From sequence record PZ445521.1: DNA of 64,000 nt; one strand, written 5' to 3'. A model generated the notes under the pieces. The model did not search any database. It was given only the letters and a program-made list of their open reading frames with translations, and had not been told where the DNA came from. How positions within the stretch are numbered: position 1 is the stretch's first letter; the number at the start of each line of letters is the position of its first letter. This DNA is from a phage. The translations under genes were made by a program, and so were the position numbers. This document shows, one piece after another, positions 1 to 62,370 of the stretch.

Positions 1-255
1 CTGGCCAAATTGAATCACCTTCAGTTGACGTTTTAATTCTTTTATCATTTCTTCGTTCATCGCAATATAAAGATCGCGTAAAGCAGGTTTTAGCATGTCA
101 TTTATTATAGAACTAAATGGACATACATAATCTTTTCCTACGAGCTTTTTGGTGAATTCCATATCACAGAACTTAAATCCCGGCTCATTGGTATAAATTC
201 CCCAATTAGTTGACATCATTTTATTGGCATATTCTAGTGCCTGGATTTGATTCAT
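1..255 (-). CDS. hypothetical protein, N-terminal part (runs off window start)
   Basis: Minus-strand ATG at 255-253 opens a frame (MNQIQALEYANKMMSTNWGIYTNEPGF...) with no stop through position 1; not in ORF track because it has no stop in the window. Confidence 0.35.
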   Translation of the reverse strand, partial: MNQIQALEYANKMMSTNWGIYTNEPGFKFCDMEFTKKLVGKDYVCPFSSIINDMLKPALRDLYIAMNEEMIKELKRQLKVIQFGQ

Positions 256-287
256 AATTCCATCAATTTGAAACTTTTTAATATTCA

Positions 288-749
288 TTAGTAAAGGTCC
301 TCAGAGTAAAGTTCTTTTTCACTACCACCACGTTCAATACGTACTTGTCCAGCGTAAGTTGCAATAATCATTGCTTCTTCGCGAGTCCAATAATTACTAT
401 ATTGGTCAATAAATCCTTGGTCATCATCACAAACTTGCTGAGTAACTAATTGGGGTTTAACTACATCTAAAACTGCTGCCATATCTTTAGAATAATGACG
501 AGCACCTGGAATAATAAGAGTTCGTCCATCTTTTAATTTAAAACGGTTGGCTGCACAGACAATTCGTCGTTGATACTTTTGATTTTCATCCCAGTACGCA
601 GTCTGCCAACAAATTTCAGGAACTTCTTTCAGAATATCTTCTTCTGTGCATTTATAACCATGTGCTTTAAACTTTTGAACAAGACTTTCTGGAGTTTCAC
701 GAGATAAAGGAACATTCAGCATTTTTAAACGATTAATAAATGGGTTCAT
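288..749 (-). CDS. hypothetical protein, 153 aa
   Basis: ORF track; stop/start overlap with next gene; position downstream of motA. Confidence 0.55.
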
Positions 750-1075
750 TTAAACCATCCTTTAATACGTTGCCACAAAGTTTTCTGCTGAGCTTTGTTA
801 ACGCCAATTGAGCGAATAACCGGTTGAGATTCCTGGAATTCTTTATAATCGGCAAGGTAAATTTCGTAAGCTGCATCTGTAAAGGAACTTATCGCTGCCA
901 TGAAATTATTGCGAATACCTACTGGAGCATCTTTACTTTCACGAATAATCATGTATTTACCAGTCTTAATCTTTACAATAGTTCCAAGATAAGCTCCATG
1001 ATACCAGATGTCCCACCCCTCTTGAGTGGGTTCTGCGCAACGACGAAGTTCATTGACAATTTCTAACTTGTTCAT
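746..1075 (-). CDS. hypothetical protein, 109 aa (motA.1-like position)
   Basis: ORF track; 4-nt overlap with downstream ORF; directly downstream of motA. Confidence 0.55.
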
Positions 1076-1085
1076 TATTTATTCC

Positions 1086-1721
1086 TCACAGTTCAGATGC
1101 TACAGTGATTACAGCTTCAATGTTTTCTGCCGAGCGTTTAATGTCAAGATACACATTACCGTTTTTAGCGATTTTACATGACATTCCGATGTCAGTAAAT
1201 TTCTGAATATGATGTTCCATCATTTTGTATCCAAAAATTCGCATATTTCCATTGTTGTTAATTTCAAAATTACGAATTCCGTGGGTGCGTTTTTCTAAAA
1301 TAGCGAGATAGTTACTGCGGTAAGTTTCAACCTTTTTAAGAACAAATCCATTTTCATCTAAAAGTTTTAACATGAGGTCTTTATCTTCTTCCATATCAGA
1401 AGTAATCTCGCGAGCTTTACGAGTTGCTCGTTTTTTCAGTAGTTCCGGAGCATTTTCCTGTGCGTATAAAGTTGCTGCGTTTGAAATAATATCTTGCGCT
1501 TCGCCTGTGATGATTAATCCATCACCTGATTTCTCTACCAGGCCTTTTTTGATCAATACCCCAATATTACTATTAACTACTGCGTTACCTAAATCTGGAT
1601 GCACCTCACGAACTTCTGCAGCTGTAATGAAATCTTTCTTAGCAATAGTAATTAAAATCGCAGCAGTTTTTTCATTCAGAACATCGTTAGAAGCTTTGAT
1701 GATGTAAGTTACTTTAGACAT
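1086..1721 (-). CDS. motA: MotA, activator of middle transcription
   Basis: 211-aa ORF, same length as T4 MotA, sequence recognised; early promoter immediately upstream; synteny next to gene 52. Confidence 0.9.
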   Translation of the reverse strand: MSKVTYIIKASNDVLNEKTAAILITIAKKDFITAAEVREVHPDLGNAVVNSNIGVLIKKGLVEKSGDGLIITGEAQDIISNAATLYAQENAPELLKKRATRKAREITSDMEEDKDLMLKLLDENGFVLKKVETYRSNYLAILEKRTHGIRNFEINNNGNMRIFGYKMMEHHIQKFTDIGMSCKIAKNGNVYLDIKRSAENIEAVITVASEL

Positions 1722-1754
1722 TTTCTAATCTCCGTAATTCTGTATCAGTAGTTG

Positions 1755-1795
1755 ATAGTTGTATAGTACCACAGTATGCTTTGGTTGTAAACCGT
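1755..1795 (-). promoter_or_regulatory. early promoter, sigma70-type (-35 TTTACA, 17-bp spacer, -10 TACTAT)
   Basis: Plus-strand tgtaaa at 1786-1791 and atagta at 1763-1768, spacer exactly 17; A/T-rich element upstream; member of the repeated cassette. Confidence 0.6.
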
Positions 1796-1810
1796 TTTGT
1801 GAAAAAAATT

Positions 1811-1843
1811 TTAAAATAAAAAAGGGAGAGCCTCGGCTCTCCC
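1811..1843 (-). terminator. intrinsic terminator-like hairpin with U-tract
   Basis: Stem gggagagc...gctctccc at 1824-1843, followed on the minus strand by a run of U (plus-strand A-run 1811-1823). Confidence 0.55.
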
Positions 1844-1848
1844 TAAAA

Positions 1849-1998
1849 TTACTGCATGACTGTGATAACTGTCATGATAACACGTTGAATGCCGAACGCA
1901 AGAAGACCTCCTGCTACGGCTGGAACAACACCTACCCCCGCTAGTAAAATGCCGCCAGATACTAATGCTGCGCTTGTAATACCTATAAATGGACTCAT
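1849..1998 (-). CDS. small hydrophobic protein, 49 aa
   Basis: Read from DNA: ATG at 1998-1996 overlaps gene 52 stop (ATGA); GAGGAAA Shine-Dalgarno upstream; MSPFIGITSAALVSGGILLAGVGVVPAVAGGLLAFGIQRVIMTVITVMQ; length is a multiple of 3. Confidence 0.4.
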   Translation of the reverse strand: MSPFIGITSAALVSGGILLAGVGVVPAVAGGLLAFGIQRVIMTVITVMQ

Positions 1999-3323
1999 TT
2001 GATTTCCTCTAAATCTTTAGTGTATTCTGTAACTACATCAGTAGTTTTCCAATATTCGTTTTCTTCTTTCTTAGCTTTAGCTTCTTCAGCAAGTTTCTTT
2101 GCTTCGTCGGAAGTCATATGAAAAATATTCATTCCGACTAGTTTATCAACATAAGAAGAATACATATCAATTTTAGAAAGTTCTTCGGTCAGTTCTTTGC
2201 GAGTTTTACCCTGTACAACGATTTCACCTGAAATTACTTTCTTAATGAAATGTGCCTTGGCAAAGGCTAAACGAAATGCTGATTCAGTTTCTTTGATTTT
2301 GTTATCAATTCGTTTTTGGACATAAGTTTTACGAACTTCAACGAAGTCTTTGATTAAATCAACTACGTTATCGTAAACTTGTAGCTTTCCTTTCTCATTA
2401 ATAACGGTAATATTTTGGGAACGACGCTCAATCAACCCGAAGTCTTTCATAATTTTCGCGTGACGTTCTTCTTCGTTATCGCTCAAAGCGTATTCTTTGC
2501 GGAATTTAACTTTAAAGCCAAAACCATGCTCACCACAAGCATCATCCCATGTAATGAAGCCTTTATCTTCAAGTGGGTCTAAGATTTTACTCACATAAGT
2601 TTCACGATCATACTTATACGGAATCTCAGTGATGTGCATTTGAGTTCGTGAAGTAAACTTATATGTTCCACGAATTTCATATTGTCCATCAATTTCAACG
2701 ACTTCACCACGAAATTCTGGGAATTCTACCTTCGGTTTAGTTACTTTCTTTCCTTGAAGAGCTTGTAGTACAGCTTTCTTGACAGAAGAAACACTATGAG
2801 GAAGAATGTAAGTTGCATAACCAGTTGCAATACCGGAAACGCCATTAAGAAGAACAGTAGGAATAATAGGCAAATAGAAAGCAGGCGGAATGTGTTCTTT
2901 ATCTTGATGTACCGGAGCATACTCAGTATCTTTATATACACTATAGAAATTTTTACTTACACGAGCAAAAATATAACGACTTGCTGCTGCTTTTTGGACA
3001 GTACGAGAACCAAAGTTTCCTTGACCATCTAACAGAGGAAAGTTATTATTCCAAGTGTTAGCCATCAAAGCACCTGCGTCTTGCGCAGAGTTTTCACCAT
3101 GATGATATCCAAGGTCCGCTACACCACCTGCAATAGAAGCGAGTTTGTGAAACTTATCTTTATTTCCTCGTGCCAAATCAAGAGCTCGAGCAATAACAAA
3201 TCGTTGAACTGGCTTAAATCCATCAATCATATTTGGAATAGCACGATTTTCAACCGTGTACATAGCATAAGCCAATGCTTCATTATCAATGATACTTTTT
3301 AAATCGCGATTATTCAGTTGCAT
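1995..3323 (-). CDS. 52: topoisomerase II medium subunit gp52 (GyrA-like)
   Basis: 442-aa ORF, same length as T4 gp52; sequence recognised; synteny. Confidence 0.92.
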   Translation of the reverse strand: MQLNNRDLKSIIDNEALAYAMYTVENRAIPNMIDGFKPVQRFVIARALDLARGNKDKFHKLASIAGGVADLGYHHGENSAQDAGALMANTWNNNFPLLDGQGNFGSRTVQKAAASRYIFARVSKNFYSVYKDTEYAPVHQDKEHIPPAFYLPIIPTVLLNGVSGIATGYATYILPHSVSSVKKAVLQALQGKKVTKPKVEFPEFRGEVVEIDGQYEIRGTYKFTSRTQMHITEIPYKYDRETYVSKILDPLEDKGFITWDDACGEHGFGFKVKFRKEYALSDNEEERHAKIMKDFGLIERRSQNITVINEKGKLQVYDNVVDLIKDFVEVRKTYVQKRIDNKIKETESAFRLAFAKAHFIKKVISGEIVVQGKTRKELTEELSKIDMYSSYVDKLVGMNIFHMTSDEAKKLAEEAKAKKEENEYWKTTDVVTEYTKDLEEIK

Positions 3324-3327
3324 AAAT

Positions 3328-3468
3328 TTACCATACTAGTGAATGTAGTGCCATAATAACATCAGAAATGAAAAGCACGACTTGAATTAATCCGAACATT
3401 ACTCCATAATATAGTGCTACTAATAAAGTAGCAAGGGCTAATGAATAGCCCAAGATTTTCTTAATCAT
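3328..3468 (-). CDS. small hydrophobic protein, 46 aa
   Basis: Read from DNA: ATG overlaps ac stop (AATGATTAA); predicted MIKKILGYSLALATLLVALYYGVMFGLIQVVLFISDVIMALHSLVW; sits between ac and gene 52. Confidence 0.35.
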   Translation of the reverse strand: MIKKILGYSLALATLLVALYYGVMFGLIQVVLFISDVIMALHSLVW

Positions 3469-3619
3469 TAGTAGATAACAACACAAATGTTAAATATGCA
3501 CACATACCCTGAGCTAAAGCTTGCGAAAACACACTGCTGGCATCAATACAGATAGTTAAAACACATGCTACTATCCAACAAATAAATGAAATAACTCCTA
3601 ATAATTTTGCAATATTCAT
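3461..3619 (-). CDS. ac: Ac-like small membrane protein (acriflavine sensitivity), 52 aa
   Basis: Read from DNA: GAGGAAAAT-ATG at 3619; MNIAKLLGVISFICWIVACVLTICIDASSVFSQALAQGMCAYLTFVLLSTND; length and position between stp and 52 match T4 ac. Confidence 0.5.
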   Translation of the reverse strand: MNIAKLLGVISFICWIVACVLTICIDASSVFSQALAQGMCAYLTFVLLSTND

Positions 3620-3626
3620 ATTTTCC

Positions 3627-3707
3627 TCACTGGAGTCCGAAGACGCCTTTGGTTTTAAGATTGTTACGATAGAACTGCATCACGTGTTCGTTGTGGAAAT
3701 TACTCAT
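3627..3707 (-). CDS. stp: Stp, 26-aa peptide (activator of host PrrC anticodon nuclease in T4)
   Basis: Read from DNA: [26 protein letters not shown]; start overlaps ndd stop (TAATG); length 81 nt; matches T4 Stp as remembered. Confidence 0.7.
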
Positions 3708-4165
3708 TAATATGCCTGTAAAACAAATTTAAAGTTATCAGCCAACATACGGTTCATTTCTTCAAGTGTTTGATACTCAGAATGATGATTACGAGTAAAC
3801 GCCAAAGCTAACTGACCTTTACCAAATCCCGTCGTCAGAGGTTTCATCTTAGAAGCAGGCAGATAAAACACTGTGTATGGAACATTGTTATTTGCAATAG
3901 TACGCGCAAGTTGAGACCGGCGTTGACGAATATGACTTAAAACCGCACTGAATCCTTGCTTAGAACGCTGATTACCTACATAAAATCGTGCTGACACACA
4001 TGGATTACTAAATGGACGACCATCTAATTTACTTACTAAAAAGTAAAATCCAGGTTTAGATAAAATGTCTTTATGCGGAGTTCCCAAAAACCATTCACCG
4101 CCCTTGATTGTGCCAATAACAGTAGCGCCTGCATTATTCAGATCAGTAACAGTCATGTATTTCAT
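3707..4165 (-). CDS. ndd: Ndd-like nucleoid disruption protein
   Basis: ORF 3707-4213; chosen start MKYMTVTD has GAGGAAA 7 nt upstream, giving 152 aa (T4 Ndd about 151 aa); position upstream of stp. Confidence 0.6.
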
Positions 4166-5465: not shown

Positions 5466-6023
5466 TTAAATGGAAAGATACCATCCGTTGTAGTTGCTTT
5501 TTCTTACAACCTTACGAAGGTCTTCTCTGTCACCGATGAACTTCGGAGTGTACTGGATGACACCTGGATGAATTTCTTTAGTGTTGAATATAATTATACA
5601 GTCAGCGACTTGATGATTTAGAATGGGCCCTAGATTTATTCCAGAACCGTATGGATACTCTCCGCTGCATCCTGTTGTTACAGAAATCCAACGTGAGTCA
5701 GTTTGGTGTGTCTTAACTTCTACACGAAGCCCGCAGTATCTTGGATGCGCCAATACATCCCATGCGTATGTATACGGGTCATTAACATCCTCTTGGCCTT
5801 TATTGACATATCCGCTTAGCCAATCTGCTACAAAAAATTCTGCGTACACAGCGATACGACATCTTTCAATAACTTCTGCTTTATCCTGGTTCGGGTTTTG
5901 TTTTAAAGAGTATCTTGCTGTATCAGCAATTTTGACCTTCATTTCACTAGTCAAGTCACTGTTCGATAGGGTAAATGTCGGAATCTGAAATAGTCTCTGT
6001 AAACCCGGATTCGTTTTCTGCAT
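5466..6023 (-). CDS. denB: DenB-like endonuclease IV
   Basis: 185-aa ORF, same length as T4 DenB; position near rIIB. Confidence 0.6.
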   Translation of the reverse strand: MQKTNPGLQRLFQIPTFTLSNSDLTSEMKVKIADTARYSLKQNPNQDKAEVIERCRIAVYAEFFVADWLSGYVNKGQEDVNDPYTYAWDVLAHPRYCGLRVEVKTHQTDSRWISVTTGCSGEYPYGSGINLGPILNHQVADCIIIFNTKEIHPGVIQYTPKFIGDREDLRKVVRKSNYNGWYLSI

Positions 6024-6285
6024 TTAGACTTTCCTTTTTACCGCTGAGATAAGCGTTATATACTTTAAGAGTGCCATAATAAATTCGGTCATTTTCATCT
6101 AAAGACTCGCGGTCAAGTTCATCGAGCTCCTTTTTATCCATGACTATAACATCATTACAGTAAAGAAACCCAAGTTTTTCGTGACCAAACTCAAATTTAT
6201 TACAGTACACAATATTAGCGTGATGATTTCCGTGCAGTTTAATCTCTTTTATGTCGGAATCACCGATATTCATACAATAAATCAT
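5956..6285 (-). CDS. hypothetical protein, 109 aa
   Basis: ORF track; 3-prime end overlaps denB start by 68 nt. Confidence 0.5.
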   Translation of the reverse strand: MIYCMNIGDSDIKEIKLHGNHHANIVYCNKFEFGHEKLGFLYCNDVIVMDKKELDELDRESLDENDRIYYGTLKVYNAYLSGKKESLNAENESGFTETISDSDIYPIEQ

Positions 6286-6294
6286 AATTTTTCC

Positions 6295-6317
6295 TTAAAA
6301 CAAAAGGGCCGAAGCCC
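6295..6317 (-). terminator. tetraloop hairpin with U-tract
   Basis: gggccgaagccc at 6306-6317 (GGGCUUCGGCCC on the transcript) followed by a U-run. Confidence 0.5.
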
Positions 6318-6323
6318 TTTATT

Positions 6324-6518
6324 TTACTTGAATTGTGCAATTCTTTTCTCTAGACATTCAGCATAAGATTTCATTGAGATGAACTGTGAAAGCAGCAGTT
6401 CTTGCTCAACTGCACTAACTGTTAGAAACTTTGCGCTTTCTAAAAATTTACTCAGTGCATTAATTTTGAGCATTAATTGATCGTATTCTTCTTTTACTCG
6501 TGCTTGATAACCTAACAT
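6324..6518 (-). CDS. hypothetical protein, 64 aa
   Basis: ORF track; between rIIB and denB. Confidence 0.5.
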   Translation of the reverse strand: MLGYQARVKEEYDQLMLKINALSKFLESAKFLTVSAVEQELLLSQFISMKSYAECLEKRIAQFK

Positions 6519-6546
6519 AATTTTCCTTAGTTAAGGGCCGAAGCCC

Positions 6547-7485
6547 TTATTTAAATTGTTCAGTAACGTCTTCAACTACTTCGTATTGGCAGGTACGCAT
6601 TTTAGCATCGTTGTAATCAATCGGAATTGATACTACATCACGCGGATGTACTTTAACTTTTACGACTCGGCTGGTTGAACTGCCAAAGTGACGAATATAA
6701 GATTTAGAACACACATGCAGACCACGAGAACAAGTTTGTGTATCATCGTCATTCACACGAGTACGTGGCATTTTAACTACTTTACCCGGACTGTTATCAA
6801 AGGTGTTTGAGTGACAGTCAAAGTAATTGCTGCGAACTACTTTCCAAGCATAGAAGTAACCATCTTCTGTAATTTCAATATCGTTTGCTACCAAGAAATC
6901 AAAGAGTCGAGATACCGCTTTTTGGCTTGGGTTTTCCAGCAGATTTTCCAAGAACGGAAAATAAAATTCAAAGTTTTCGCCTTTTTCCATCGAATCAAGA
7001 ATACGATCAACTAAACCAGACCGCAATTCAATATTTTGATAGAACAAGCTTCCACCTTCAATTCGAACATCGCCGGAAATATATTTTTCAACAGCGCGAC
7101 GAACATTAATTTTTTGTGCAGCTTCTTCCAGCCTATCCGCTACAAGCAGATTAAGAATTTCCTGGAAGTTTGAATGAGTATTAGGAGTTGCGTTATAAGT
7201 TACACCGTCAACAGTAATTGAAATGAATTTTTTAGATGCATTCCAAATAATGTCAGATTTAGCAACTGGAGCAATAACTGCATCGCTATTAACTTTAACT
7301 GTAATATCACCGCTAATAGTAACTTTAGAGCGTTTAGCTTCTTCAGCATTTTTCAAAACACGACGGATTGTGTCAACCGATACATCCTTCCAATAAGCTA
7401 ATTCCTGTTGGGTATAATTACCACTTGAATACAGTTTAACAATTTCAGCTTGTTCGTTTTTGGTCAGGCATTTAATATTGTACAT
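6547..7485 (-). CDS. rIIB: RIIB
   Basis: 312-aa ORF, same length as T4 rIIB; directly downstream of rIIA. Confidence 0.9.
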   Translation of the reverse strand: MYNIKCLTKNEQAEIVKLYSSGNYTQQELAYWKDVSVDTIRRVLKNAEEAKRSKVTISGDITVKVNSDAVIAPVAKSDIIWNASKKFISITVDGVTYNATPNTHSNFQEILNLLVADRLEEAAQKINVRRAVEKYISGDVRIEGGSLFYQNIELRSGLVDRILDSMEKGENFEFYFPFLENLLENPSQKAVSRLFDFLVANDIEITEDGYFYAWKVVRSNYFDCHSNTFDNSPGKVVKMPRTRVNDDDTQTCSRGLHVCSKSYIRHFGSSTSRVVKVKVHPRDVVSIPIDYNDAKMRTCQYEVVEDVTEQFK

Positions 7486-58314: not shown

Positions 58315-59283
58315 TTATTTCAGAAGAGTAACCTCAGCAATTTCTTCCCAACCGTTTTTGTCTGTCATAATAAAGTCAGCAAGATAAAGAGCAGTACGCA
58401 GTGAAACATTACGTAAACGATTAACATTGACTTTCATCCATGATAATGCTTTATAAGTTTCTTCATCAGAAAGACCGCGCTTTTGCATCATGTCAGTTGA
58501 AAGAATAACATCTTCAACCCTGACCATAATTTCTTCATTAGTGTGAACACCCAAATCCAAATAAACTGAGCGGGACACTAATGCTTGTAAATGTGGAGCA
58601 AGTTTAGTACCACGGTCTAATTCGCGGTCAATGTCAACGTTTGTGATAAAAACAATCGTTCCTTTAAATTCAAACTCACGCTCAATGCCTTTTTCTTCTA
58701 AGTAAGAAGATGCGGTGCTCCAGCAGACTTTACGGGTCTCTCCGGTGTCCAGAGCAGCTTTCAGAAGATTAAGAATGTCCATATCAGAGAAAACATCCAC
58801 ATCATCAATCAAAAGGACAGAATTCTCTTCACGATTATTCCAAAGCTGCTCATAAAGACCAATACCAGAGATTTTACCATTAATGCTTTTATATTCAATG
58901 TATCCAATATCATTTGCTTTATTTAAAGCTTTATCTAAAGAATACGTTTTACCAATACCCGCCGCACCAGAGATAATTAATGAACGAATATTTCCATTAA
59001 TAATACCATTCGTCATCATTCCCATAACATTAAATCTTTTATTAATGCGGGTTTTCATATCTTCATACGATTCTTTAACTTCTTCAACTTTTACACCATC
59101 ATATGAAATGTCTGATTTGTAAACCCAAACACCGCGACGTTTACCGTCAATTTCAACAAAAACTTTACCATCTCCTTGTGCATCTACCGGAGCATTATCT
59201 GGGAACCATTCGCCTAAGAGCTCAAAAGTTCCAGAGATTTCTTTACCGAAGTAGATACCCTTATTGATAGTTACAGTTTTCAT
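58315..59283 (-). CDS. P-loop ATPase (AAA-like), 322 aa
   Basis: Walker A GAAGIGKT and Walker B LLIDDVD after a roughly 100-aa N-terminal domain. Confidence 0.7.
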   Translation of the reverse strand: MKTVTINKGIYFGKEISGTFELLGEWFPDNAPVDAQGDGKVFVEIDGKRRGVWVYKSDISYDGVKVEEVKESYEDMKTRINKRFNVMGMMTNGIINGNIRSLIISGAAGIGKTYSLDKALNKANDIGYIEYKSINGKISGIGLYEQLWNNREENSVLLIDDVDVFSDMDILNLLKAALDTGETRKVCWSTASSYLEEKGIEREFEFKGTIVFITNVDIDRELDRGTKLAPHLQALVSRSVYLDLGVHTNEEIMVRVEDVILSTDMMQKRGLSDEETYKALSWMKVNVNRLRNVSLRTALYLADFIMTDKNGWEEIAEVTLLK

Positions 59284-59340: not shown

Positions 59341-59541
59341 TTATTTTGACATTTCTTCGATGTCACGACGATACCCGTCACGAACTTCACGAAGAGCTTC
59401 AAGGCCACACATAGGCTCGATACCAGTAATGTGAACTTGATTAATCTGATACTCTACATCTTCTAACTGAGCGAAAACATAACGACGTTCAGCTGCACAA
59501 CCAGGTTTAGCTTTACCGAAACGTTTATTCAAAGTAGTCAT
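59341..59541 (-). CDS. hypothetical protein, 66 aa
   Basis: ORF track; first gene after the promoter at 59573-59611. Confidence 0.5.
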   Translation of the reverse strand: MTTLNKRFGKAKPGCAAERRYVFAQLEDVEYQINQVHITGIEPMCGLEALREVRDGYRRDIEEMSK

Positions 59542-59630: not shown

Positions 59631-59657
59631 AATAAAAAAGGGAGCCCGAAGGCTCCC
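59631..59657 (-). terminator. intrinsic terminator downstream of the nucleotidyltransferase gene
   Basis: Stem gggagcc cgaa ggctccc at 59640-59657 followed by a U6 tract. Confidence 0.6.
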
Positions 59658-59659
59658 TA

Positions 59660-60673
59660 TCATTTATAATAACTTCGGTGGTTTTCAAGATAGACCTTCT
59701 CAAGGAAGTCATCCCAGAAACTCATGTCTACTGTTTTAGGCATACCGTTCTTAGAAGCTTCAGTAGATGCTGCTTCTACTTGATCGACCACATCTTCCAA
59801 AAACTCTTGAACTGTTTTAAATGGATGTTTACCCAACTTCACGTCGAGAATAAATGGAGCATCTTGAAGTGGATAGACTAAGTCACCAGTTTTGTAAATT
59901 TCCAATAGTTGAAGTCCACCACGACAAGCATGGCTCAGAGCTTTCCAGTCAATGCCTTCATTGGCTTCGGCCTTACGAGCGCGTTCACCATATTCAGCAT
60001 CTAATTTGTTCAGTGACTGCTTAAGCTCAATAAGAGAAAGAGTTGTCTGATATTTACGACCCAACACTGTGTAAAACGTCTGTGGGCCTGTTTTCTCATG
60101 ATTATGGAACACCCATTCACAGAATTCGTTTTCTGGAAGACGATGCTTAATATCTTCAACTTTAGTACGACGCTGCTTAATGGAACCGTCTTCTTGGTAA
60201 TCAACCCATTGCTCAGGGATTTGATTAACTACTTTCAATACATCACGTAATGCAGCCAAACGAGAACCCTTGACACCGTATTTAGAAGCTTGCTTGCGAA
60301 CATATCCTAAATAGGATTTCATGTTAGTCGTATAAAAACGAGAACGGTTGTCTTGAATAAACTTCCACACATCAGGCAAATCAGATTTAACCACTAGTTC
60401 AGGTGGAGTATGAAGCATATCTAATGCTACAGTTTCACCATCTGCAGCTAATTTAAAGAAATATTTAAGACTGTATAGTTCATGGTCAATATCATCTTTA
60501 GTGTTTTTAGATGATGTGTTGTTGGTGTTTTTACTCATGTGCTCTTTGACATTTCCGATAAGAATATCGCGAGCAGGAGGAACAAAAATTTCTTTAAAAT
60601 CTACATCAGATTCTGGGGTAGAAGTTCCATAAAGATGACTACCAAAATAGCTTTTCATTACTGTTTTCATCAT
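59660..60673 (-). CDS. MNT/ANT-type (Pol-beta superfamily) nucleotidyltransferase-like protein, 337 aa
   Basis: N-terminal GSHLYGTSTPESDVDF fits the GS-x3-G-x5-SD-x-D nucleotidyltransferase signature; long helical C-terminal region; start overlaps upstream membrane ORF (ATGA). Confidence 0.65.
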   Translation of the reverse strand: MMKTVMKSYFGSHLYGTSTPESDVDFKEIFVPPARDILIGNVKEHMSKNTNNTSSKNTKDDIDHELYSLKYFFKLAADGETVALDMLHTPPELVVKSDLPDVWKFIQDNRSRFYTTNMKSYLGYVRKQASKYGVKGSRLAALRDVLKVVNQIPEQWVDYQEDGSIKQRRTKVEDIKHRLPENEFCEWVFHNHEKTGPQTFYTVLGRKYQTTLSLIELKQSLNKLDAEYGERARKAEANEGIDWKALSHACRGGLQLLEIYKTGDLVYPLQDAPFILDVKLGKHPFKTVQEFLEDVVDQVEAASTEASKNGMPKTVDMSFWDDFLEKVYLENHRSYYK

Positions 60674-61131
60674 TCAGCCTTATATTCAATAACAGGACAT
60701 ACTTTAGCTTTACGAGCTTTTAAAAATTCGACGATAATCGATTTCTTGGGTTGAATAGGAGGTAAACCTTTATACGCTCTATCAATATTTTCTACGTGTA
60801 AAGCATAATCCTTTTTCCATTTATAATCTTTATATTTTTCACGCAAATGTGCAGGAATAACAAATGAACCGATAATAAGTAAAACAACCAAAAGTGCAAG
60901 TATAAATGCCGATGGAAGAAGAGTCCATAAACTACCGAAAATAAGCCAACGTTGTAGGCTTTCTGCACAAATAATTGTTAACCCTACGAGTATAGCACAC
61001 CCAAAAATAGAAACGAAAAATGTAGGAATGGCAATAGACCAAAAATATGCGCATAGTGTCTTAGGTCGTTGCCATTCGTCGTTAAACAATTTGAATAATT
61101 TATAATGCCAAGAGTTTTCATTAATAATCAT
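60670..61131 (-). CDS. membrane protein, 153 aa
   Basis: Two to three hydrophobic helices; translationally coupled to the nucleotidyltransferase ORF. Confidence 0.55.
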   Translation of the reverse strand: MIINENSWHYKLFKLFNDEWQRPKTLCAYFWSIAIPTFFVSIFGCAILVGLTIICAESLQRWLIFGSLWTLLPSAFILALLVVLLIIGSFVIPAHLREKYKDYKWKKDYALHVENIDRAYKGLPPIQPKKSIIVEFLKARKAKVCPVIEYKAE

Positions 61132-61133
61132 AA

Positions 61134-61655
61134 TTATCCTTTCATTGAAGGAGTAATGGTTGTTAAATACTTAATCATAGCTTCAGCTTCTGATTTTGAT
61201 AATGAAATTTCTCCATTGTTTTGACGAATAGAAATAAAATCCGGATGACGGTCACCACCAGCTTTTAAAACACACATATAAGTATCAACTTCACCTTCAA
61301 TATTTGAAATGATTGAAGCAGTTCCGCATGAATGTGGTTTTTGATAAATCAATGCAGCTTTTCTTCCACCATTTGACTGTTCATAGGCTTTTAATACATC
61401 AAACAAATCAGTTCTTTTATCAATAGCTAAAATGTTATTTTCATCTTCAATGTTAAATCCTTCGGATACTTCATAAAGCGTTACCCATAAATCACCGATG
61501 TCAATAACAGCATTTACTTTTCCACGGCTTTCAAGAGTATGACAAATTTTCTTGATTTCGTCATAACTCATTTTAATAATATCATCTCCTTGACTAAGGA
61601 AGATGTCATTTTTAAATTCAACACGAATTAAACCACTTTCACTTGAAATAAACAT
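61134..61655 (-). CDS. hypothetical protein, 173 aa (paralog pair)
   Basis: Shares GFNIE(D/S)E and a C-terminal block with the next ORF. Confidence 0.55.
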   Translation of the reverse strand: MFISSESGLIRVEFKNDIFLSQGDDIIKMSYDEIKKICHTLESRGKVNAVIDIGDLWVTLYEVSEGFNIEDENNILAIDKRTDLFDVLKAYEQSNGGRKAALIYQKPHSCGTASIISNIEGEVDTYMCVLKAGGDRHPDFISIRQNNGEISLSKSEAEAMIKYLTTITPSMKG

Positions 61656-61661
61656 ATTTCC

Positions 61662-62207
61662 TCACTTTGAAATCATAGTTGGAATAACAGAATCAAGATA
61701 AGTCTTTAGTGCAATAGCTTCGTCTTTGGTAAATGTGACAATATGTGCTCGAAAATCATCAATTTGACGAATAGTTAAGACATCTCCATCTTCATAACAT
61801 TTTGATACGTTTAAAACAGTTTCATCATTCTGATTGCAAGCGTTAGTAATAATAGCATTGCAATTTTTAAACCATTTTAAACTATGTTTTCTTTCATTAG
61901 AATAATAAAAATATTTAATCTTATCTATAAAACTATCCCAATGGATAACTGATAAGCATATTGACTCGCTTTCAATATTAAATCCTGGGCATGAAGAATA
62001 AAAATGAATTTTATGCTCATCATTAATGCTTACAATTTTATCAGTATAAGGATTTTCAATTTTGGTTAAATGAATGATTTCACTAGGCGTAAAATACAGC
62101 ATATCGTCTTCTTGTGTCAAACGATACATATTATTTACTTTTTCTATAGCCAATTCACCAAAAAGTGAACTAACTTCTAATACTAATCGTTTCGCCGCTA
62201 CCGTCAT
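61662..62207 (-). CDS. hypothetical protein, 181 aa (paralog pair)
   Basis: C-terminus TKDEAIALKTYLDSVIPTM versus SKSEAEAMIKYLTTITPSM in the neighbour. Confidence 0.55.
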   Translation of the reverse strand: MTVAAKRLVLEVSSLFGELAIEKVNNMYRLTQEDDMLYFTPSEIIHLTKIENPYTDKIVSINDEHKIHFYSSCPGFNIESESICLSVIHWDSFIDKIKYFYYSNERKHSLKWFKNCNAIITNACNQNDETVLNVSKCYEDGDVLTIRQIDDFRAHIVTFTKDEAIALKTYLDSVIPTMISK

Positions 62208-62332
62208 TACATACTCCTCTGAATCATATCAATAATGTTGTTCACCAGATTATAAGTAAACATTGGGTAATTATATTGAATCACCACATACACAACAAAC
62301 AAAACTTTCATTCTCTTCTCCTTGGCAGTTGA

Positions 62333-62370
62333 CAAGATTACTATACCATAACCTTGCCAACTTGTAAACC
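62333..62370 (-). promoter_or_regulatory. early promoter (-35 TTTACA, -10 TATAGT)
   Basis: tgtaaa 62362-62367, actata 62339-62344, 17-bp spacer. Confidence 0.5.

Follow-up and report, generated by a model that had tools for sequence, protein, structure and literature searches.

The Pnk/Rnl1 pathway of phage T4 was the first RNA repair system to be discovered. It counters PrrC, acting on cleaved anticodon loops to reverse ribotoxin damage. Wobble-nucleotide removal by RloC, on the other hand, 'could defy reversal' by the T4 enzymes (PMC2610378). A further family, RlaP, owes the name that Burroughs and Aravind gave it in 2016 to the linkage of its genes with those of RNA ligases, as their work is recounted in PMC12776372 and PMC7824862, and the account in PMC7824862 gives the prediction that, ahead of ligation, RlaP replaces the nucleotides that a broken RNA has lost, for instance after wobble excision by RloC. 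In this study we analysed a 64,000-nucleotide stretch of phage DNA (sequence record PZ445521.1; the window) and describe a 337-amino-acid protein encoded at 59660-60673 on its minus strand. It is the ortholog of T4 NrdC.11 and a member of the RlaP family (PF10127) of nucleotidyltransferases (NTases) of the Pol-beta type, and we suggest that it may take part in T4-type tRNA repair.

The biochemistry of RlaP has been described in a December 2025 preprint for two Pseudomonas enzymes, PfRlaP and PaRlaP, which come from rtcB-rlaP-rtcA operons (PMC12776372). According to this preprint, both label RNA of E. coli while leaving its DNA and protein unlabelled, and add one or two nucleoside monophosphates (NMPs) to the 3'-OH of RNA, using any nucleoside triphosphate (NTP) and also dATP, with an optimum in Mn2+ or Co2+. 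They favour the 5' half of a cleaved-tRNA mimic, and rRNA-, tRNA- and fragment-sized RNAs are all labelled in vitro. RlaP also partly restores the aminoacylation of a repaired tRNA minus one anticodon-loop nucleotide, and the crystal structure of PfRlaP consists of an N-terminal NTase domain and a C-terminal helical domain that together form a cleft. T4 NrdC.11 is listed there as a member of the RlaP family with unassigned function, in cluster 5 of the sequence similarity network (SSN). The first-pass annotation of the window, made from the letters alone, knew of no assigned function for the 337-residue protein. This is outdated at the family level, given that the family has had its name since 2016 and an assay since 2025 and that T4 NrdC.11 has been placed in it; the gene is the ortholog of the known T4 nrdC.11 and its family assignment is already published.

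Judged by its sequence, the source of the window is a T-even phage: a 3-kb stretch of the locus is 100% identical to Shigella phage JK38 DNA and 96-98% identical to many Tequatrovirus genomes. The comparison with T4 nrdC.11 that had been proposed for the 337-residue protein identifies an ortholog, with 98.2% identity to the T4T protein and the same length as the T4 entry (UniProt P39242, 'uncharacterized 38.9 kDa protein in nrdC-mobD intergenic region'). The Pfam family PF10127 (RlaP), titled 'RNA repair pathway DNA polymerase beta family', is matched at E 3e-11 with 43.9 bits, where the gathering score is 23; residues 7-135 correspond to positions 23-142 of the 249 in the profile, and PF10127 is precomputed for all of the listed homologs save four of the weakest. 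PHROG 388, 'nucleotidyltransferase', is matched over the full length (E 7e-138). A profile comparison with eleven canonical RlaPs of 250-270 residues using hhalign gave 95% probability across the N-terminal 90 residues (E 3e-8). Of the clusters formed at 50% identity, 3508 match at E <= 1e-3, which makes the family a large one, and 832 match at E <= 1e-30, the latter mostly over the full length. On these profile matches we are highly confident that the protein is a diverged member of the RlaP family.

The N-terminus of the open reading frame (ORF) reads MMKTVMKSYFGSHLYGTSTPESDVDF and includes the signature G11-S12...S22-D23-V24-D25 (codons at 60599-60643, minus strand), which corresponds to the glycine-serine loop of the NTases and the first two of their metal-binding aspartates. 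The first-pass annotation had pointed out this GS...SDVD signature, and its key residues turn out to be invariant. In an alignment of 88 NrdC.11 relatives at 28-88% identity, G11, S22, D23, D25, Y132, R231, K244, H248, R251 and P268 do not vary and N57, D61, D63 and D85 hardly vary; S12 is conserved to 98%, as is D63 (Asp in 86 of the 88 sequences, Glu in two). The motif is not a chance occurrence, because the protein as a whole scores so far above the PF10127 cut-off. In the hhalign comparison the GS and DxD motifs fall in register with the GS...DSDYD of canonical RlaPs, and D63 (codon at 60485-60487, minus strand) aligns with the invariant Asp of their 'LDxNGWD' strand. From this register D23, D25 and D63 can be assigned as the probable metal-binding triad, with D63 as the putative third catalytic aspartate.

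The AlphaFold2 model of NrdC.11 (predicted local distance difference test 92, predicted template modelling score 0.76) has an N-terminal alpha/beta NTase domain and a predicted helical domain with a long C-terminal helix. A beta-rich insert at about residues 152-212 (60038-60220, minus strand) is placed between the helices of the C-terminal domain and is specific to the NrdC.11 subtype. The C-terminal part of about 250 residues, which had been described as helical, thus contains the helical domain but is not purely helical. The likeness to canonical RlaP comprises PF10127, the GS...DxD motif and third Asp in register, the predicted order of an NTase domain followed by a helical domain, and relatives that are adjacent to RNA ligase genes. 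The differences are also considerable. NrdC.11 is some 70-80 residues longer, its C-terminal half cannot be aligned by profile, it has the insert, it belongs to SSN cluster 5 rather than 1a, and the two types often stand side by side in prokaryotes.

Structure searches with Foldseek returned KNTase (1kny) as the best match at E 7e-3, then 3c18 and Hailong HalB, with 8-16% identity throughout. Each of the top solved neighbours (HalB, KNTase, 3c18, LinB and MNT) is a Pol-beta NTase that has a helical partner domain, so the NTase fold, which had been the subject of a proposed AlphaFold and Foldseek check, is shared with KNTase, MNT and HalB. Sequence searches of the PDB with the protein or the 88-sequence profile gave only noise (ribosomal protein S6, E >= 0.067), and no RlaP structure was found among the PDB sequence or structure searches.

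The fold neighbours KNTase/ANT(4'), the MNT antitoxins and HalB share the minimal NTase fold and a helical bundle with NrdC.11. The initial claim of an MNT/ANT-type nucleotidyltransferase therefore holds for the Pol-beta superfamily but not for the family. The NCBIfam MntA model reaches 13.2 bits where the cut-off is 60, the Pfam NTP_transf_2 model 13.6 bits where it is 21, and the resemblance to the ANT/KNTase family is at the level of the fold only. Nor does the locus belong to the Hailong system, which pairs a HalB-family NTase with a HalA-type membrane protein. The suggested comparisons with AbiEii, CD-NTases and CCA enzymes came back empty: PADLOC v2.0.0 (2023, with later systems outside its coverage) gave no match to AbiEii, CD-NTases or other defence NTases at E <= 0.1, and for CCA-adding and poly(A) polymerase families there was no Pfam match at E <= 0.1 and no member among the top structural neighbours. 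Scans of five proteins (the products of the four largest genes of the transcription unit and of nrdC.10) against PADLOC and NCBIfam gave nothing significant, and no neighbouring gene matched a HEPN toxin family in Pfam and PHROG searches.

The gene context of NrdC.11-type proteins in prokaryotes supports a link of this subtype to RNA repair. We scanned one genome per prokaryotic species and obtained 80 loci with full-length NrdC.11-type proteins at 32-54% identity. ORFs were called around each locus and neighbours were found within about 6 kb by profile and phmmer queries. Of the 80 loci, 19 have a canonical RlaP as a neighbour (Pfam E 4e-75 for a representative), and in 17 of these it follows directly on the same strand. 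RtcB is found at seven loci, a Ro60/TROVE-vWA protein at four, a kinase-phosphatase-Rnl1 ligase fusion (Pnkp-ligase) at three, a T4-type Pnk at two and an Rnl1-type ligase at one; altogether 14 of the 80 loci have at least one RNA-repair neighbour other than canonical RlaP. A neighbourhood of RNA ligase and RNA repair genes therefore exists for the prokaryotic relatives of NrdC.11, but not within the phage itself.

One of these loci, contig L012, has the T4 repair set plus an NrdC.11-type enzyme. This 4-kb contig was binned as Bathyarchaeota and is possibly a phage contig. At 62-3803 on the plus strand it encodes, tightly packed on the one strand, a RlaP of the NrdC.11 type, an NT5C-like nucleotidase, a Pnk of the T4 type made of a kinase and a HAD phosphatase, a 143-residue ORF without a Pfam match, and an Rnl1-type ligase. 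The tandem loci, in which a canonical RlaP comes right after the NrdC.11-type match (at about 6000-7000 of the locus), are L013, L014, L024, L030, L031, L036, L038, L042, L060, L065, L068, L072, L075, L079, L081, L084 and L088. The canonical RlaP of the tandem has 250-270 residues, the junction between the two genes is often overlapping, and the pair are diverged paralogs of one family, an arrangement that suggests activities which differ but cooperate.

NrdC.11 is found in 1518 phage records. Canonical RlaP is found in 86, mostly from Pseudomonas jumbo phages and none from T4-like genera, and T-even phages therefore carry the NrdC.11 branch only. JK38 encodes both Pnk and RNA ligase. Taking family, structure and gene context together, we lean somewhat towards an explanation in which NrdC.11 acts in T4 tRNA repair and replaces nucleotides before sealing by Pnk and Rnl1. 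D23, D25 and D63 would bind two divalent metals, probably Mn2+, and the enzyme would use NTPs to extend the 3'-OH of a broken RNA by one or two NMPs, the likeliest substrate being the 5' half left when a tRNA is cleaved in its anticodon loop. It would thus provide an optional third step in the 'healing and sealing' of T4. Pnk would clear the 2',3'-cyclic phosphate and phosphorylate the 5' end, NrdC.11 would restore the nucleotide taken by an RloC-type, nucleotide-excising anticodon nuclease of the host, and Rnl1, which needs a 3'-OH and a 5'-phosphate, would join the halves into a loop of normal length. Because of these end requirements of the ligase, NMP addition after Pnk is a route that is compatible with Rnl1, and an NMP-extended 3'-OH would still be a proper end for it. 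NrdC.11 would share with the Pnk/Rnl1 pathway both substrate and purpose, but it would be useful only for lesions that remove nucleotides, such as those of RloC. The parts of this explanation do not all have the same strength. That NrdC.11 adds NMPs to RNA 3' ends appears reasonably probable from the chemistry of its relatives, while a specific role in countering RloC is a tentative proposal to which we give less than even weight.

Several observations weigh against this explanation. The similarity to canonical RlaP is confined to the N-terminal 90-130 residues and the C-terminal half differs, with no structural neighbour found for the beta-rich insert. The known RlaP biochemistry comes from cluster-1a enzymes in a preprint that is not peer-reviewed, and NrdC.11 is in SSN cluster 5 (PMC12776372). 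The assayed RlaPs discriminate little between NTPs, which would make it inefficient to restore the right nucleotide (PMC12776372), and a restored wobble base would, we infer, also be without its modification. On laboratory hosts T4 can do without the block from nrdC.11 to mobD.3 (PMC9825161). In the phage, pseT and rnlA lie about 80 kb from nrdC.11. In T4-like phages the numbers of records with NrdC.11, Rnl1 and Pnk are close to one-to-one per host genus (286/287/286 for Klebsiella, 83/83/83 for Shigella, 69/69/70 for Acinetobacter and 56/56/56 for Enterobacter), but we regard this co-distribution as weak evidence, since common descent within a single virus family accounts for most of it. For Streptomyces phages there are 132 records with Rnl1 and 133 with Pnk, and Streptomyces is absent from the ten leading genera for NrdC.11. 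Finally, the tandem arrangement with canonical RlaP suggests that the two types are non-redundant and may do different things.

This last point raises the question whether the NrdC.11 type has a job of its own. It could form a functionally distinct branch of RlaP, with its own C-terminal domain, its beta insert and, in prokaryotes, its frequent placement directly upstream of canonical RlaP, which T-even phages would use with Pnk and Rnl1 against RloC-like nucleases; the tandem pairs would then imply either a heteromeric enzyme or two steps of nucleotide addition that are not redundant. We consider this version rather doubtful. Alternatively, NrdC.11 might be an RNA 3'-end nucleotidyltransferase with another role, such as the repair of the 3' CCA of host or T4 tRNAs, or the tailing of host or phage RNAs with an effect on their stability. 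Such a role would draw on the same RlaP chemistry, which places one or two NMPs on any RNA 3'-OH and labels RNAs of all the sizes assayed, and it would fit a gene unlinked to pseT and rnlA, a distinct C-terminal domain with an insert, and a tandem partner that implies a different substrate or step. However, neither CCA-adding enzymes nor poly(A) polymerases are among the Pfam families that NrdC.11 matches, and the ligases, Pnk and Ro60 found beside its relatives point to the repair of breaks and not to the maturation of ends. T4 tRNAs without an encoded CCA need the host cca enzyme, which speaks against a CCA-adding activity of the phage. In our view this role is unlikely. A modification of proteins or small molecules, or the synthesis of an oligonucleotide signal, is less probable again and would count as improbable; the models here would be AMPylation as by an MntA-like antitoxin, an ANT-like change to a small molecule, or a HalB-like production of oligo-dA that disturbs a defence of the host. 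The resemblance to such enzymes is at fold level only, at low identity and with a best Foldseek E-value of 7e-3; the MntA and NTP_transf_2 models stay below threshold, there is no PADLOC match and no PDB sequence match even with a profile, and the context of the relatives is RNA repair. The assayed RlaPs, moreover, label RNA and not E. coli protein or DNA (PMC12776372), and the modification of host proteins that had been suggested for the window enzyme is for this reason unlikely.

The first-pass annotation had placed the enzyme with the 153-residue membrane protein encoded just upstream (60670-61131, minus strand; PHROG 944/22816) in a translationally coupled early module at the membrane. The overlap on which this model builds is real. 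At the junction GCT GAA TGA TG, the first ATG of the 337-residue ORF shares ATGA with the stop of the 153-residue ORF, while most database records start one codon later, giving a protein of 336 residues and a one-base overlap at TGATG. The membrane protein has two strong hydrophobic segments by hydropathy, at about residues 30-58 and 63-97, which we take as its two transmembrane segments. Its gene is directly upstream of nrdC.11 in Tequatrovirus except T4, and in Mosigvirus, where PhAPEC2 has the same adjacency with a 4-nt overlap; in Citrobacter phage Merlin and Acinetobacter phage Stupor a diverged homolog is found one gene further upstream. The partnership nevertheless does not hold up. T4 has mobD in that place and keeps NrdC.11 at 98% identity without the membrane gene. 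Of phage records, 852 have the membrane gene and 1518 have NrdC.11, and besides T4 the two genes are also not adjacent in Aeromonas phage 25, Klebsiella phage Miami or Vibrio phage K571, where the membrane gene is absent beside the enzyme. Among the prokaryotic loci, only two of 48 upstream same-strand genes encode at least two hydrophobic segments, with no excess over other positions. Gene overlaps are common in this genome: at 20-64 kb of JK38, 30 of the 85 annotated junctions (35%) overlap, among them 15 that share ATGA and five that share a single base. Across the same phages the membrane protein diverges much faster (26-48% identity against 53-78% for NrdC.11), and NrdC.11 itself has no hydrophobic segment. 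A functional module of the two proteins thus appears very improbable. The simplest reading is that the overlap is ordinary T4-type gene packing, that is, inherited synteny in a dense early region, and that the membrane protein and the two y05I-like proteins described below are co-transcribed neighbours, incidental to the mechanism. A role of NrdC.11 in counter-defence stays plausible; what falls away is the membrane partner, which T4 does without.

The transcription unit itself is largely as first described. Its promoter, its terminator and two paralogs of 173 and 181 residues are found where they had been placed, and the membrane gene and the 337-residue ORF are part of it, but a small first gene had been omitted. 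The unit is headed by an early-type promoter at 62340-62368 (minus strand), composed of TTTACA, a 17-nt spacer with a TG, and TATAGT. With a score of 10 out of 12 it is the top sigma-70-like site within 58-64 kb, and the identical sequence is found upstream of mobD.2 in T4T. The omitted gene is the ortholog of mobD.2 (34 residues, 62207-62311, minus strand), which is a coding sequence in KAW1E185 and T4T and the TAA of which shares one base with the ATG of mobD.1. The mobD.1 ortholog follows at 61662-62207 (minus strand) and encodes a y05I-like protein of 181 residues, 83% identical to T4T MobD.1, with Pfam matches to T4_y05I_N (E 5e-38) and T4_y05I_C (E 9e-21). Its paralog of 173 residues (61134-61655, minus strand) matches the same two families, is 29% identical to it (E 1e-10) and has no counterpart in T4T. 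The unit is closed by an intrinsic terminator at 59639-59658 (minus strand), GGGAGCC-TTCG-GGCTCCC followed by a T-run. Its stem has eight pairs, six of them G-C; it is identical in T4T and annotated as a terminator in KAW1E185. Early expression, as the first-pass annotation had proposed, agrees with the time-resolved omics of T4, in which the RNAs of mobD.1, mobD and nrdC.11 belong to the early class and the NrdC.11 protein is detected in the middle class (supplements of PMC9697503).

T4 shares with the window the terminator, a promoter and nrdC.10 on the downstream side, and the early promoter, mobD.2 and mobD.1 on the upstream side. It differs in having mobD directly upstream of nrdC.11, where the window has the y05I paralog and the membrane gene instead, and in not having the 66-residue ORF that the window has downstream. 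In T4 mobD lies between mobD.1 and nrdC.11 (PMC2988022), and in T4T it overlaps the start of nrdC.11 by 17 nt. The mobD gene, which encodes a free-standing HNH homing endonuclease, replaces the genes of 173 and 153 residues (60670-61655 in the window; 3741-4520 of L002 in T4T), so that mobD and this pair represent an insertion or replacement polymorphism among Tequatroviruses. The families of MobD.1 and its paralog (61134-62207, minus strand) are described in Pfam as the N- and C-terminal domains of a 'y05I-like putative transcription factor'. Merlin has upstream of the membrane gene a fragment that matches the C-terminal y05I domain only.

On the other side of nrdC.11, a 66-residue ORF (59341-59541, minus strand; PHROG 6200) is found between nrdC.11 and nrdC.10. 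It is annotated in KAW1E185 and preceded by a promoter-like site at 59608-59580. PhAPEC2 has a 66-residue ORF at the equivalent position, whereas T4T has none and a gap of only 115 nt between nrdC.11 and nrdC.10. NrdC.10 (58315-59283, minus strand) is a P-loop, AAA-like protein of 322 residues (PHROG 1250) with weak matches to AAA_14, AAA_22 and nSTAND3. It is the best-conserved neighbour of nrdC.11, with 66-99% identity in T4T, PhAPEC2, Merlin and Stupor, and its gene lies downstream of nrdC.11, beyond the terminator and the promoter-like site.

We also observed that the annotation of this gene in the databases is often misleading. Orthologs of nrdC.11 are widely labelled 'thioredoxin' in GenBank (JK38, MLF4, WL-3 and many more), as are several other nrdC.x genes, in what is apparently a spill-over from the locus name nrdC. 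One record has the ortholog as 'putative HNH homing endonuclease', a spill-over from mobD. The homolog is apparently split or interrupted in OZ038339.1 (Acinetobacter phage Konradin-v2) and in KY683735.1 (Escherichia phage ECD7): one of these records has two features named 'nucleotidyltransferase', and in the other the match comes in two pieces at 72% coverage.

The idea of nucleotide replacement has been proposed in print before, by Burroughs and Aravind in 2016 as related in PMC12776372 and PMC7824862, and in the 2025 preprint. The window therefore adds an ortholog and not a discovery. What is new here is that the link to the membrane protein is incidental, that the NrdC.11 subtype is associated with RNA repair genes, and that it is frequently paired with canonical RlaP in prokaryotes. 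The residual novelty lies in a distinct NrdC.11 branch and its putative role in T4. Whether phages can reverse the damage of 'smart', nucleotide-excising anticodon nucleases is a question that has been raised since 2008 (PMC2610378), and NrdC.11 is the obvious candidate for such a reversal. If the proposed role were true, NrdC.11 would represent the first means by which a phage counters a lesion long considered irreparable by the T4 system.

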